DNA of 64,000 bases from an uncultured Solirubrobacterales bacterium (GTDB lineage Bacteria; Actinomycetota; Thermoleophilia; Solirubrobacterales; 70-9), in contig CAWEWY010000003.1 in assembly GCA_963812905.1 (NCBI GenBank), positions 1,527,470 to 1,591,469 on the forward strand, in the 5' to 3' direction. Each line of letters opens with the position of its first letter. Position 1 is the stretch's first letter. Of this stretch, positions 27,423 through 29,528 are shown piece by piece. Under the pieces are notes generated by a model. The model saw only the letters and a program-made list of their open reading frames with translations. It made no database searches and was not told the DNA's origin. Position numbers and translations under genes: made by a program.

Positions 27423-27463
27423 TTAGGAGGGAGTCGCTCTATCCAGCTGAGCTATCGGGGCGG
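27423..27463 (-). repeat. att direct repeat 1: copy of tRNA-Arg nt 1-~41 (5' acceptor strand, D-arm, anticodon stem-loop)
   Basis: ttaggagggagtcgctctatccagctgagctatcggggcgg is identical to 21400-21440. Confidence 0.8.
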
Positions 27464-27502
27464 ATGCCGACATTGTCTCTCAGACGAGCCGTCCAATGAG
27501 TG

Positions 27503-27871
27503 CTAGGTCTGAAGCCGGTTGTGGGCGACTTGGTAGACGGTGGGAGCGTTCGAGTCACGCGGATGATGGCGGACGCCGAAGGCGGCGTAGACGAGTCGCA
27601 ACTTGCCGCTACGGCGCTCGATGCGGAAGACCATGCCGAACTTTCCGTCAGGGGGTGGCAGATAGACCTTGACGCAATGCGCGAGCTGGGTTCCGTCGGT
27701 GCCTTCCTTGTCGCAGGCAAGAAGGACATCTACCGGCACGCCGTTCTGTTCGTACTCGCTCCGGGTTGCGCGGGCGACCTTCTGCCCTGCATCGCTGGCT
27801 CGCCTCAAATCCTCAGCGAAGGCAGCATCGTCGAACAGGGCCGTTGTCCGACCAGACCGCTTGTCGCTCAC
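27503..27871 (-). CDS. Mini-element 1, gene B: 122-aa protein, possibly a RelE/ParE-fold toxin
   Basis: …CVKVYLPPPDGKFGMVFRIERRSGKLRLVYAAFGVRHHP… has a C-terminal beta pattern reminiscent of RelE/ParE; start overlaps the stop of gene A. Confidence 0.5.
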   Translation of the reverse strand: MSDKRSGRTTALFDDAAFAEDLRRASDAGQKVARATRSEYEQNGVPVDVLLACDKEGTDGTQLAHCVKVYLPPPDGKFGMVFRIERRSGKLRLVYAAFGVRHHPRDSNAPTVYQVAHNRLQT

Positions 27872-27874
27872 CGG

Positions 27875-28120
27875 CTACCCCTCGCCGTCGGGGGGCTGCA
27901 CTGGGCCGAACTCGGCCTCGAACTCAGCCAAGGTCGCCGGCTCGGTGCCAAGGCGCTTGCGGATCGCCTCGAACGAGGTATCCGGAACAAGTGTGAGCGA
28001 TCCGTCCGGGCGCTCCTCGGTGACGCGGTACTCGCCCACCCGGTCGTCGCTGAGCTCGACGTGAGCATGCAACTCCATGCGGTGGATGATGGCAGAAGCC
28101 GACCGTGCTGTTGAAGGCAT
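27875..28120 (-). CDS. Mini-element 1, gene A: 81-aa protein, putative antitoxin partner
   Basis: MPSTARSASAIIHRMELHAHVELSDDRVGEYRVTEERPDGSLTLVPDTSFEAIRKRLGTEPATLAEFEAEFGPV…; first gene of a two-gene operon. Confidence 0.5.
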   Translation of the reverse strand: MPSTARSASAIIHRMELHAHVELSDDRVGEYRVTEERPDGSLTLVPDTSFEAIRKRLGTEPATLAEFEAEFGPVQPPDGEG

Positions 28121-28453
28121 CCCTGCATTTCCTTTCGCTGCGTTTTCGCTTCCATGTCTGAACTCCGCTGTCTTGACGGCAGTCGCTTTCTATCGCCACA
28201 GGGATCCAGATTCGCAAGTGCCGCCCGAAGGCGGCACCGCATCTCAGCCCGCCGAAACGAACTGAGGGGGTGCAGACAGAATACCTACAACCCTCGCCTG
28301 GTGCCTGCCTCGCGGCGTCGAGGACTGATTGGGCAGCGGAGCTTCTCGCTGCCCAAACCGGGATAGAAGCACGGCAATCCACAAGATTCCGCGGTCGCAC
28401 TCGGAATCGTCAAAACCTTACCCAGAGCCGAAAACGCGCGCGCCTCCACCTCG

Positions 28454-28497
28454 CTTAGGAGGGAGTCGCTCTATCCAGCTGAGCTATCGGGGCGGGC
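28454..28497 (-). repeat. att direct repeat 2 (tRNA-Arg 5' ~41 nt)
   Basis: cttaggagggagtcgctctatccagctgagctatcggggcgggc. Confidence 0.8.
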
Positions 28498-28535
28498 GCC
28501 GACATTGTCTCTCAGACGAGCCATCCAATGAAGCG

Positions 28536-28904
28536 CTAGGTCTGAAGCCGGTCGTGGGCGACTTGGTAGACGGTGGGAGCGTTCGAGCCACGCGGATGAT
28601 GGCGCACGCCGAAGGCGGCGTAGGCGAGTCGCAACTTGCCGTTGCGGCGCTCGATACGAAAGACCATGCCGAACTTTCCGTCAGGAGGCGGCAGGTAGAC
28701 CTTGACGCAATGCGCGAGTTGGGTTCCGTCTGCGCCTTCCTCGTCGCAGGCAAGAAGGACATCCACCGGCACGCCGTCCTGTTCGTACGCGCTCCGGGTC
28801 GCGTGGGCGACCTCCTGCCCCGCATCGCTGGCTCGCCTCAAATCCTCAGCGAAGGCAGCATCGTCGAACAGGGCCGTTGTCCGACCAGACCGCTTGTCGC
28901 TCAC
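28536..28904 (-). CDS. Mini-element 2, gene B': paralog of 27503-27871
   Basis: 10 substitutions in 122 aa relative to copy 1. Confidence 0.5.
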   Translation of the reverse strand: MSDKRSGRTTALFDDAAFAEDLRRASDAGQEVAHATRSAYEQDGVPVDVLLACDEEGADGTQLAHCVKVYLPPPDGKFGMVFRIERRNGKLRLAYAAFGVRHHPRGSNAPTVYQVAHDRLQT

Positions 28905-28907
28905 CGG

Positions 28908-29153
28908 CTACCCCTCGCCGTCGGGGGGCTGCACTGGGCCGAACTCGGCCTCGAACTCAGCCAAGGTCGCCGGCTCGGTGCCAAGGCGCTTGCGGATCGC
29001 CTCGAACGACGTATCCGGAACGAGGGTGAGCGATCCGTCCGGGCGCTCCTCGGTGACGCGGTACTCGCCCACCCGGTCGTCGCTGAGCTCGACATGAGCA
29101 TGCAACTCCATGCGGTGGATGATGGCAGAAGCCGACCGTGCTGTTGAAGGCAT
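28908..29153 (-). CDS. Mini-element 2, gene A': identical paralog of 27875-28120
   Basis: All 81 residues identical to copy 1; begins at the internal Met of track ORF 28908..29252. Confidence 0.5.
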   Translation of the reverse strand: MPSTARSASAIIHRMELHAHVELSDDRVGEYRVTEERPDGSLTLVPDTSFEAIRKRLGTEPATLAEFEAEFGPVQPPDGEG

Positions 29154-29487
29154 CCCTGCATTTCCTCTCGCTGCGTTTTCGCTTCCATGTCTGAACTCCG
29201 CTGTCTTCACGGCCAAGCCACTTTCTATCGCCACAGGGATCCAGATTCGCAAGTGCCGCCCAAAGGCGACACCGCATCTCAGCCGCCGAAACGGACTGAG
29301 GGGGTGCAGACAGAATACCTACAACCCTCGCCCGGTGCCTGCCTCGAGGCGTCGAGGACTGATTGGGCAGCAGAGCTTTCTCGCTGCCCAAACCGGGGTA
29401 GAAGCCCGGCAATCCACAGGAATCCGGGATCGCACTCGGAATCGTGTAATCCTTACCCAGAGCCGAAAAAGCGCACCCATCCGTCTC

Positions 29488-29528
29488 CCTTAGGAGGGAG
29501 TCGCTCTATCCAGCTGAGCTATCGGGGC
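29488..29528 (-). repeat. att direct repeat 3 (outermost; tRNA-Arg 5' ~41 nt)
   Basis: ccttaggagggagtcgctctatccagctgagctatcggggc. Confidence 0.8.

Follow-up and report, generated by a model that had tools for sequence, protein, structure and literature searches.

What is the nature of two collinear two-gene units that lie one behind the other next to a tRNA gene, and how did a single chromosome come to hold two of them? This question is raised by a 64,000-nt stretch of DNA from an uncultured Solirubrobacterales bacterium (GenBank assembly GCA_963812905.1, contig CAWEWY010000003.1, positions 1,527,470 to 1,591,469 of the forward strand), which we will refer to as the window. All coordinates given here are positions in the window, and L-numbers (L001 etc.) denote related loci. 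The units, each carrying two small genes that we call A and B, extend from 27462 to 28493 (unit 1, 1032 bp) and from 28494 to 29528 (unit 2, 1035 bp), with each unit's own 5' attachment site (att) included in its length. We propose that they are non-autonomous, integrase-less integrative cassettes mobilised in trans, and that they form part of an integron-like array of toxin-antitoxin or defence modules at tRNA-Arg(CCT); we give this reading a probability of roughly 0.65. The enzyme acting in trans would be a tyrosine integrase, and the crossover would be located within the tRNA-derived repeat that bounds each unit.

Architecture of the array at tRNA-Arg(CCT)

The only tRNA gene found in the window by ARAGORN and Rfam is a complete tRNA-Arg(CCT) on the minus strand (21365-21438; 71.6 bits to the Rfam tRNA model). 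A 36-mer, GGAGGGAGTCGCTCTATCCAGCTGAGCTATCGGGGC, has four exact occurrences in the window (at 21403, 27426, 28458 and 29493), where none is expected by chance, and the exact identity of the four copies reaches 39 nt. This att repeat is the reverse complement of positions 1-38 of tRNA-Arg(CCT): the block of identity begins at tRNA position 1 and reaches through the anticodon loop (CTCCTAA) but no further. The four copies, all on the minus strand, are the first 39 nt of the tRNA itself (the proximal att, 21400-21438), the junction between an integrase-bearing element and unit 1 (27423-27461; tRNA positions 1-38 plus 1 nt), the start of unit 1 (28455-28493) and the distal att (29490-29528), which has a TACGAT box on its 5' side. 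We take the distal copy to be the displaced original 5' half of the tRNA, and this box to be the native one. Read along the minus strand, the order of features is chromosome, 5' half (29528-29490), unit 2, 5' half (28493-28455), unit 1, 5' half (27461-27423), a 6-kb integrase element and, finally, the complete tRNA-Arg(CCT).

Only 3 nt separate the tRNA from the end of the integrase gene (minus strand, 21442-22674). Its 410-aa product is a tyrosine integrase (Pfam Phage_integrase, 4e-13; PHROG integrase, 9e-55) that also matches a SAM-like N domain and, weakly, Arm-DNA-bind_2 in Pfam, and that is at most 27% identical to phage integrases; we consider it the candidate recombinase for the whole array. 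An identity block that ends in the anticodon loop, combined with an integrase gene adjoining the rebuilt tRNA, is the arrangement that characterises tRNA-targeting tyrosine-integrase elements, and the Williams classification of 2002 is said to include such elements with their crossover in the anticodon loop. Elements that carry the 5' part of the tRNA, as here, represent the less common orientation.

Under the mechanism that we propose, a tyrosine integrase of the tRNA-adjacent type would join a circular cassette to the tRNA gene by recombination in the region of the anticodon loop, with the first 38-39 nt of tRNA-Arg(CCT) as the crossover site. The incoming cassette would bring a new tRNA 5' half together with a promoter box, the old 5' half would be displaced upstream, and repeated integrations would stack cassettes with the newest one beside the tRNA. 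Such a scheme would solve a known problem, namely that an element replacing the 5' half of a tRNA has to provide the tRNA promoter too. From oldest to newest, the window would then contain a nucleotidyltransferase (NTase) gene pair, the A-B pair of unit 2, the A-B pair of unit 1, the 6-kb integrase element and the tRNA. The A-B module could make the cassette or the array hard to lose, or it could serve phage defence.

Both units share one layout on the minus strand, i.e., a tRNA 5' half, a 135-nt arm, a leader of about 200 nt, gene A, gene B and a tail of about 41 nt. In unit 1, the arm (28320-28454), delimited by arm alignment and containing a palindrome at 28329-28356, is followed by a leader or promoter region that is specific to this A-B cassette subtype (28121-28319), by gene A (27875-28120; 81 aa, or 67 aa from an alternative start at 28078), which encodes a putative antitoxin, and by gene B (27503-27871; 122 aa), which encodes a predicted RelE/ParE-fold toxin. 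The tail (27462-27502) carries a -10-like GACAAT (ATTGTC on the plus strand, 27472-27477) 10 nt 5' of tRNA position 1. Unit 2 consists of its arm (29355-29489, palindrome 29363-29391), leader (29154-29354), gene A (28908-29153), whose product is identical to that of unit 1, gene B (28536-28904; 122 aa, with 10 substitutions relative to unit 1) and a tail that again has a GACAAT box (28494-28535).

Pairwise alignment showed that the units are collinear and 94.6% identical, with 61 of 1036 columns differing. Together with the exact att copies, this bears out an initial annotation of the region, made from the sequence alone, which had described two collinear, att-bounded two-gene copies with a small upstream partner gene. 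The 81-aa products are indeed identical (4 nucleotide differences, all synonymous), and the 122-aa products do show 10 substitutions, their genes differing by 12 synonymous and 10 non-synonymous nucleotide changes (22 in total). Three other statements had to be corrected. The stop codon of A does not overlap the start of B, as the TAG of A and the GTG of B lie in the same frame with a 3-nt gap, a single codon (CCG), between them; the non-coding stretch of ~340 bp that had been placed after B sits 5' of A on the coding (minus) strand; and the differences are not concentrated in B, being densest in the non-coding part (30 of 337 columns, 8.9%), followed by B (6%) and A (1.6%). Across the boundary between A and B, 188 consecutive nt are free of differences between the units. 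The possibility, raised at the outset, that the two genes are fragments of a larger disrupted gene is excluded, given that A and B are both intact and conserved as a pair in more than 80 loci.

The shared arm and the probable exchange of cassettes

The initial annotation had also suggested a search for the same unit near tRNA-Arg genes. We combined a genome scan with a profile of B and a metagenome scan with the junction pattern, and found that the site and its arm recur in 108 loci of soil Solirubrobacterales. Directly after every att copy outside a tRNA, these loci have the same arm of ~135 nt, irrespective of the genes beyond it. Motifs of the arm include a GGAGGAG box at +9, TTTTCGGCTCTG at +20 in unit 1, TTTCGGCTCTG at +22, three GATT repeats about 10 nt apart between +66 and +90, and a palindrome, TTGGGCAGC-N10/11-GCTGCCCAA, at +98. 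Of 125 unique arms, 77 have the start of the palindrome exactly at +98 and 108 have it no more than 1 nt away. From these sequence features, the arm is likely to hold binding sites for the recombinase or for accessory proteins. The palindrome also persists in two loci where the att and the rest of the arm are deleted (L007, at ~10400, and L012, at 10396).

An alternative is that the tRNA half and the arm constitute a structured RNA gene, i.e., a tRNA-derived small RNA or an attC-like single-strand fold, as might be suspected from their fixed length and spacing and from the perfect hairpin potential at +98. However, the variation in the palindrome half-sites of the 125 unique arms is uncompensated only, with no compensatory pairs, which speaks for a protein that binds double-stranded DNA and against an RNA or attC-like fold. 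Rfam, moreover, gave no match in the arm, its sole match being the true tRNA. On these grounds we rejected the arm as a structured RNA and regard this alternative as very improbable. The palindrome was also considered as the true crossover and rejected, as arm variants go with the cargo downstream of them and near-identical cassettes lose their similarity at the tRNA half, not at the palindrome.

The association of arm and cargo defines what moves. Arm variants track the cargo downstream of them and tails track the cargo upstream, and the unit therefore comprises att, arm, leader, cargo and tail. Of 158 unique junctions, 97 carry TACGAT or GACAAT at a distance of 14-18 nt upstream of tRNA position 1, from which we infer that each cassette supplies a -10 element that keeps the rebuilt tRNA expressed. 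At positions -4 to -1 before tRNA position 1, about 80% of the 158 junctions read T-C-C-(A/C), with C at -3 and -2; judging from this sequence pattern, the functional att site may reach a few bases past the tRNA.

About 80 small segments of 0.83-1.8 kb are bounded on both sides. Their sizes fall into clusters of 825-975, 1032-1037, 1162-1232, 1398-1478 and 1688-1806 bp, and the integrase elements measure 2.4-8.8 kb. We assigned the genes inside the cassettes by homology clustering, which distinguished MNT-HEPN cassettes (15; Pfam PF01909 and PF05168), cassettes with a 60-aa small open reading frame (ORF) and an AbiEii/DUF2204-like nucleotidyltransferase (13), DUF5678 plus aspartyl-protease-like cassettes (9, both matches being weak), cassettes for a 159-aa membrane protein (8), A-B cassettes (at least 7, with a divergent A2-B2 type also present) and AAA_16 ATPase cassettes (3). 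Cassette order varies, and stacks reach five in L004. Among the 45 arrays that reach the tRNA, 28 have no integrase or integrase remnant adjoining it. The A-B unit is one type within this family of cassettes with a common 39-nt tRNA half and 135-nt arm, a setting that the initial annotation had not noticed and that we regard as the chief feature of the locus. Tentatively, and with somewhat less than an even chance of being right, we suggest that this is an undescribed integron-like cassette platform of Solirubrobacterales, in which the tRNA 5' half and the 135-nt arm would serve as a portable attP and cassettes of 0.8-1.8 kb would be captured, stacked and swapped.

Evidence that cassettes move as units comes from three pairs of loci in which cassettes are 97.8-99.3% identical amid unrelated neighbours, namely an AAA cassette (L102/L112), a membrane-protein cassette (L101/L160) and an A2-B2 cassette (L142/L159). 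In all three, similarity climbs from background to above 96% at one att and falls directly after the CTCCTAA of the next; between L101 and L160, the chromosome past the tRNA is unrelated too. As far as sequence comparison can indicate, breakpoints at att would fit site-specific exchange at the tRNA half. Relatives of B were found neither in IMG/VR nor in plasmids, and the att junction pattern was not found in IMG/VR; hence nothing points to transport by a phage or plasmid.

The units could instead be immobile relics, i.e., eroded integrase-bearing elements (cis-mobilisable elements, CIMEs, in the strict sense) that were kept because loss of a toxin-antitoxin pair is lethal and that change by deletion and vertical descent. 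Decay is indeed frequent in related loci, where we found integrase stubs (L003, L155, L158), a B-integrase fusion (L118), truncated att copies and cassettes fused via loss of an att and most of an arm (L007, L012), and the cargo is mostly toxin-antitoxin-like. By contrast, cassettes of one type have a constant length, a complete arm and the same tail across genomes, near-identical cassettes lie among unrelated neighbours with breakpoints exactly at att, and no integrase element was found that has these cargos inside it and lacks a junction remnant, L009 excepted. That cassettes keep a complete arm and a uniform size and move as units, despite the decay products in related loci, suggests a stable cassette form rather than a relic, and we consider the relic explanation unlikely.

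The decay products vary in form. The integrase stubs are C-terminal remnants of 60-120 aa beside the tRNA, with the rest of the element gone (6804-6989 in L003), and in L118 (5579-6976) a truncated B is fused in frame to an integrase stub. An A-B pair and an integrase gene forming one element was considered for L007 and L009. For L007 this was rejected, since a remnant of the palindrome behind B betrays a junction that has been deleted; such a remnant also follows B in L012, and none was found after B in L009.

How, then, did two A-B units arise in the window? The nearest relative, L003, has a flanking chromosome 93.5% identical to that of the window and a single A-B cassette where the window has unit 2; the identity of this cassette to either unit is 92.8%. 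At 94.6% identity, the split between the units is old, and their divergence of 5.4% is similar to the 6.5% of the flanking chromosome relative to L003, in agreement with the initial view that the duplication is not recent. The accompanying description of the units as independent family members stands only in part: overall they are each other's closest relatives, and only in the 3' two-thirds of B are cassettes from other samples closer. Specifically, unit 1 groups with unit 2 in the arm, A and the first 78 nt of B (0-18 differences), whereas in the last 291 nt of B we counted 15 differences between unit 2 and L003, 18 between unit 1 and L150/L001 and 22 between the two units. This closeness to outside cassettes indicates a mosaic history. 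Two histories would account for it, namely the acquisition of a second, related cassette followed by partial homogenisation, or a local duplication into which outside cassettes recombined afterwards.

The latter possibility leads to a rival account of the second copy, which bears solely on its origin and not on the nature of the unit. According to this account, unequal homologous recombination between the ~175-bp att-plus-arm repeats produced a local tandem duplication of one resident A-B cassette, and gene conversion kept A and the 5' end of B alike as the copies diverged. The overall closeness of the units (94.6%, compared with 92.8% to L003), the difference-free 188-nt run at the A/B boundary, the lone A-B cassette at the unit 2 position in L003 and the presence of two adjacent MNT-HEPN cassettes in both L144 and L172 all speak for it. 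It is less easily reconciled with the 3' 291 nt of B, which are closer to L003 or L150/L001 than between units, or with a synonymous divergence (dS) in B that is twofold that in A (0.146 vs. 0.069). The differences are few, which makes the test a weak one. We regard tandem duplication as a serious possibility, with perhaps one chance in three.

The leader shows a pattern of its own. Between the window (28121-28319 and 29154-29354) and L138 (1355-2387) it differs by 8%, compared with 11% for A and 26% for B, which, on this sequence comparison, suggests that cassette subtypes have recombined or that the leader is under some unrecognised constraint. As a structured RNA, the leader folds no better than shuffled sequences (z -0.85).

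The A-B gene pair

The initial annotation had read the 122-aa product of B as RelE/ParE-like, a reading supported by its predicted structure and unsupported by sequence matches to curated families. The predicted fold comprises two N-terminal helices, a three-stranded sheet and a C-terminal helix, in keeping with a RelE/ParE fold of a beta strand, two helices and a three- to four-stranded antiparallel sheet, in which a C-terminal helix is optional, and Foldseek matched the predicted model to structures of RelE, HigB, YafQ, YoeB and ParE. Searches of Pfam, NCBIfam, PADLOC and PHROGs returned zero matches to B, profiles built from 30 and 43 members retrieved no RelE/ParE sequence from the PDB, and none of the 43 distant members matches a known or toxin family in Pfam. 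We therefore describe B as a predicted, sequence-orphan member of the RelE/ParE fold.

The B family is small, with 416 clusters at 50% identity in a full scan of 1.84 billion representatives. Nearly all of its 268 close homologues are 120-130 aa long (most 121-125 aa), and every homologue with a source name comes from a Solirubrobacterales assembly. Four residues are near-invariant across the family (K68, H102, Y113 and R119), a set that would be compatible with an RNase of the RelE/YoeB type. The ratio of non-synonymous to synonymous divergence (dN/dS) is 0.15-0.33 for B and 0-0.2 for A, showing that both are real genes under purifying selection and that the constraint on A is the stronger; B, at a dN/dS of 0.26, is not under diversifying selection.

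Gene A lies upstream of B in nearly all of 80 genome loci. A small gene directly upstream, tightly linked to B and co-conserved with it, is the organisation of a type II toxin-antitoxin operon, and from its position, size and co-conservation we consider A the putative antitoxin of B. Searches with A itself gave zero matches in Pfam, NCBIfam, PADLOC and PHROGs, its profile had no relevant match among PDB sequences, and no RHH (ribbon-helix-helix), Phd or AbrB domain could be recognised in it; the structural model of A is of low confidence and has no structural neighbour. A faint match to MazE_antitoxin (E 0.058) was found in 3 of 32 A homologues. We infer from the whole that A-B is a type II toxin-antitoxin module, in which B would be toxic and A would neutralise it. 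The start of A is uncertain, as many homologues begin at the second Met (67 aa). A conserved motif, TCTGCCATCAT, lies 8-18 nt 5' of this second ATG across diverse loci (28078-28095 in the window), and many loci have a TAGATT box ~45-60 nt 5' of it.

More distant A-B pairs (50-70% identity) were found in segments of 0.7-2.3 kb (L023, L042, L049, L054-L056, L062, L063 and L074). The sequences on their flanks are tRNA 3' halves that start at position 31-33 and belong to tRNA-Val, Arg(TCT), Glu, Asp or Gly; most of the segments have no relative of the window integrase within 10 kb. The occurrence of A-B cassettes at halves of at least five other tRNAs suggests that the principle may be general in Solirubrobacterales.

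The same tRNA-flanked pairs could also be taken to mean that A-B is mobility machinery, such as a directionality or regulatory module of tRNA-integrating elements, rather than a toxin-antitoxin pair, and the faint MazE hint is the sole antitoxin signature of A. However, the fold predicted for B is of the RelE/ParE type, and most arrays and cassettes lack A-B and yet have the same att and arm, so that A-B is not required for recombination. We consider a role in mobility quite improbable.

Counter-evidence, known systems and the remaining genes

Several observations weigh against our reading of the units as toxin-antitoxin cassettes mobilised in trans by a tRNA-targeting integrase. No excised circle or empty site was observed. 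Two Logan contigs of 1034 and 1040 bp were considered as excised circles and rejected: they end inside the att and have overlaps of 14 and 20 nt, which arise because a k=31 de Bruijn graph breaks at the flanking repeat of 40-46 nt. The exchange at att could be homologous recombination over the 39 nt and the arm, and the palindrome half-sites are 11 bp apart, more than the usual spacer of core sites. Since the units are sisters overall, unit 1 may be a local duplicate rather than a second integration. As for the cargo, the Foldseek E-values for B are weak (6e-3), and B could not be linked by sequence to a RelE/ParE family of Pfam, NCBIfam or the PDB, even by way of distant members.

In structure, the units fit the description of CIMEs that have accreted in tandem with an integrase-bearing element. 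CIMEs are described as decayed integrative and conjugative or integrative and mobilisable elements (ICEs/IMEs) that measure several kb and lie at a gene's 3' end, as in the ICESt1-related islands of Streptococcus thermophilus (PMC5704250). Like CIMEs, which arise via successive site-specific integrations, the units are att-bounded, lack integrase and transfer genes, and lie in tandem with a tyrosine-recombinase element at the same target gene (PMC5704250); an exact 39-nt att is present on both sides of each, and A and B are the sole genes in the 1.03 kb. In contrast to CIMEs, the segments described here are uniform, recurring cassettes of 0.83-1.8 kb, each with a complete 135-nt arm and a promoter-like tail, that use the 5' half of the tRNA, form stacks of up to five and are exchanged between unrelated arrays.

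The array also resembles sedentary chromosomal integrons, whose arrays are rich in toxin-antitoxin and defence cassettes (PMC13108822; bioRxiv 10.1101/2024.07.02.601686). In both, recombinase-less cassettes of ~1 kb with toxin-antitoxin or defence cargo lie in variable order beside one tyrosine recombinase gene. We take the arrangement of integrase-less cassettes beside an integrase as a functional analogy to integrons only, because the window integrase is not IntI (26 bits to TIGR02249, for which the cut-off is 265), the boundaries are tRNA 5' halves rather than attC hairpins, and the recombination site is a tRNA half plus arm. Unlike integron cassettes, those described here carry their own leader, and their platform is a functional tRNA gene that is rebuilt at each insertion. 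We know of no classical integrons in Actinomycetota.

Tycheposons of Prochlorococcus are tyrosine-recombinase elements of many kb, usually with replication or packaging genes (bioRxiv 10.1101/2020.12.28.424599). They share with the present array specific tRNA targets, islands beside the tRNA and occasional tandems split by a partial tRNA copy. However, tycheposons encode their own integrase, and no small cassettes that lack an integrase and share an arm are reported among them (bioRxiv 10.1101/2020.12.28.424599). At the level of the operon, A-B resembles RelBE, ParDE and HigBA in having a small upstream gene closely before a gene for a ~120-aa protein with a matching predicted fold, and differs from them in that B has no detectable sequence relationship to a curated RelE/ParE family or solved structure. 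The pdif (XerC/D) modules of Acinetobacter plasmids are likewise small, are bounded by sites for a recombinase encoded elsewhere and often carry toxin-antitoxin pairs; in contrast to these Xer sites on plasmids, the site described here is a chromosomal tRNA half plus arm with a dedicated integrase. Literature searches gave no description of integrase-less cassettes with a shared tRNA-half-plus-arm site.

If the cassettes are indeed mobilised in trans, they would represent a second, independently evolved route to the shuffling of small-cassette arrays, resting on an ordinary tRNA-targeting integrase instead of IntI and attC. This would explain the spread and build-up of toxin-antitoxin and defence modules in abundant, uncultured soil Actinomycetota. 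The compact recombination site of ~175 bp (tRNA half and arm), with its defined integrase, could be of use in genome engineering. By prediction, B and its partner protein A further add a sequence-orphan branch to the RelE/ParE fold.

The remaining genes of the array, all on the minus strand unless stated otherwise, flank the two units. Directly 5' of the integrase gene, an ORF of ~128 aa (22681-23067), whose translation gave only faint helix-turn-helix matches, is kept together with the integrase in 13 integrase-bearing elements at 79-87% DNA identity, and would encode an excisionase or regulator. The cargo of the 6-kb integrase element (23068-27286) includes ORFs of 671 aa (24315-26330, plus strand) and 271 aa (26415-27230), which matched nothing in Pfam, NCBIfam, PADLOC or PHROGs. 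The element has its own 135-nt arm at 27287-27422, with a palindrome at 27295-27323 (arm alignment and palindrome search).

On the distal side, the apparent chromosomal flank of the array consists of the NTase pair (29549-30234), i.e., a small ORF (30022-30234, 70 aa) and a 158-aa AbiEii/DUF2204-like nucleotidyltransferase (29549-30025), identified with Pfam and PADLOC. No att or arm is detectable upstream of the pair in the window. The same pair forms an att-bounded cassette in 13 other loci, where it is usually the most distal one, and its copy in the window may be an old, fixed cassette.

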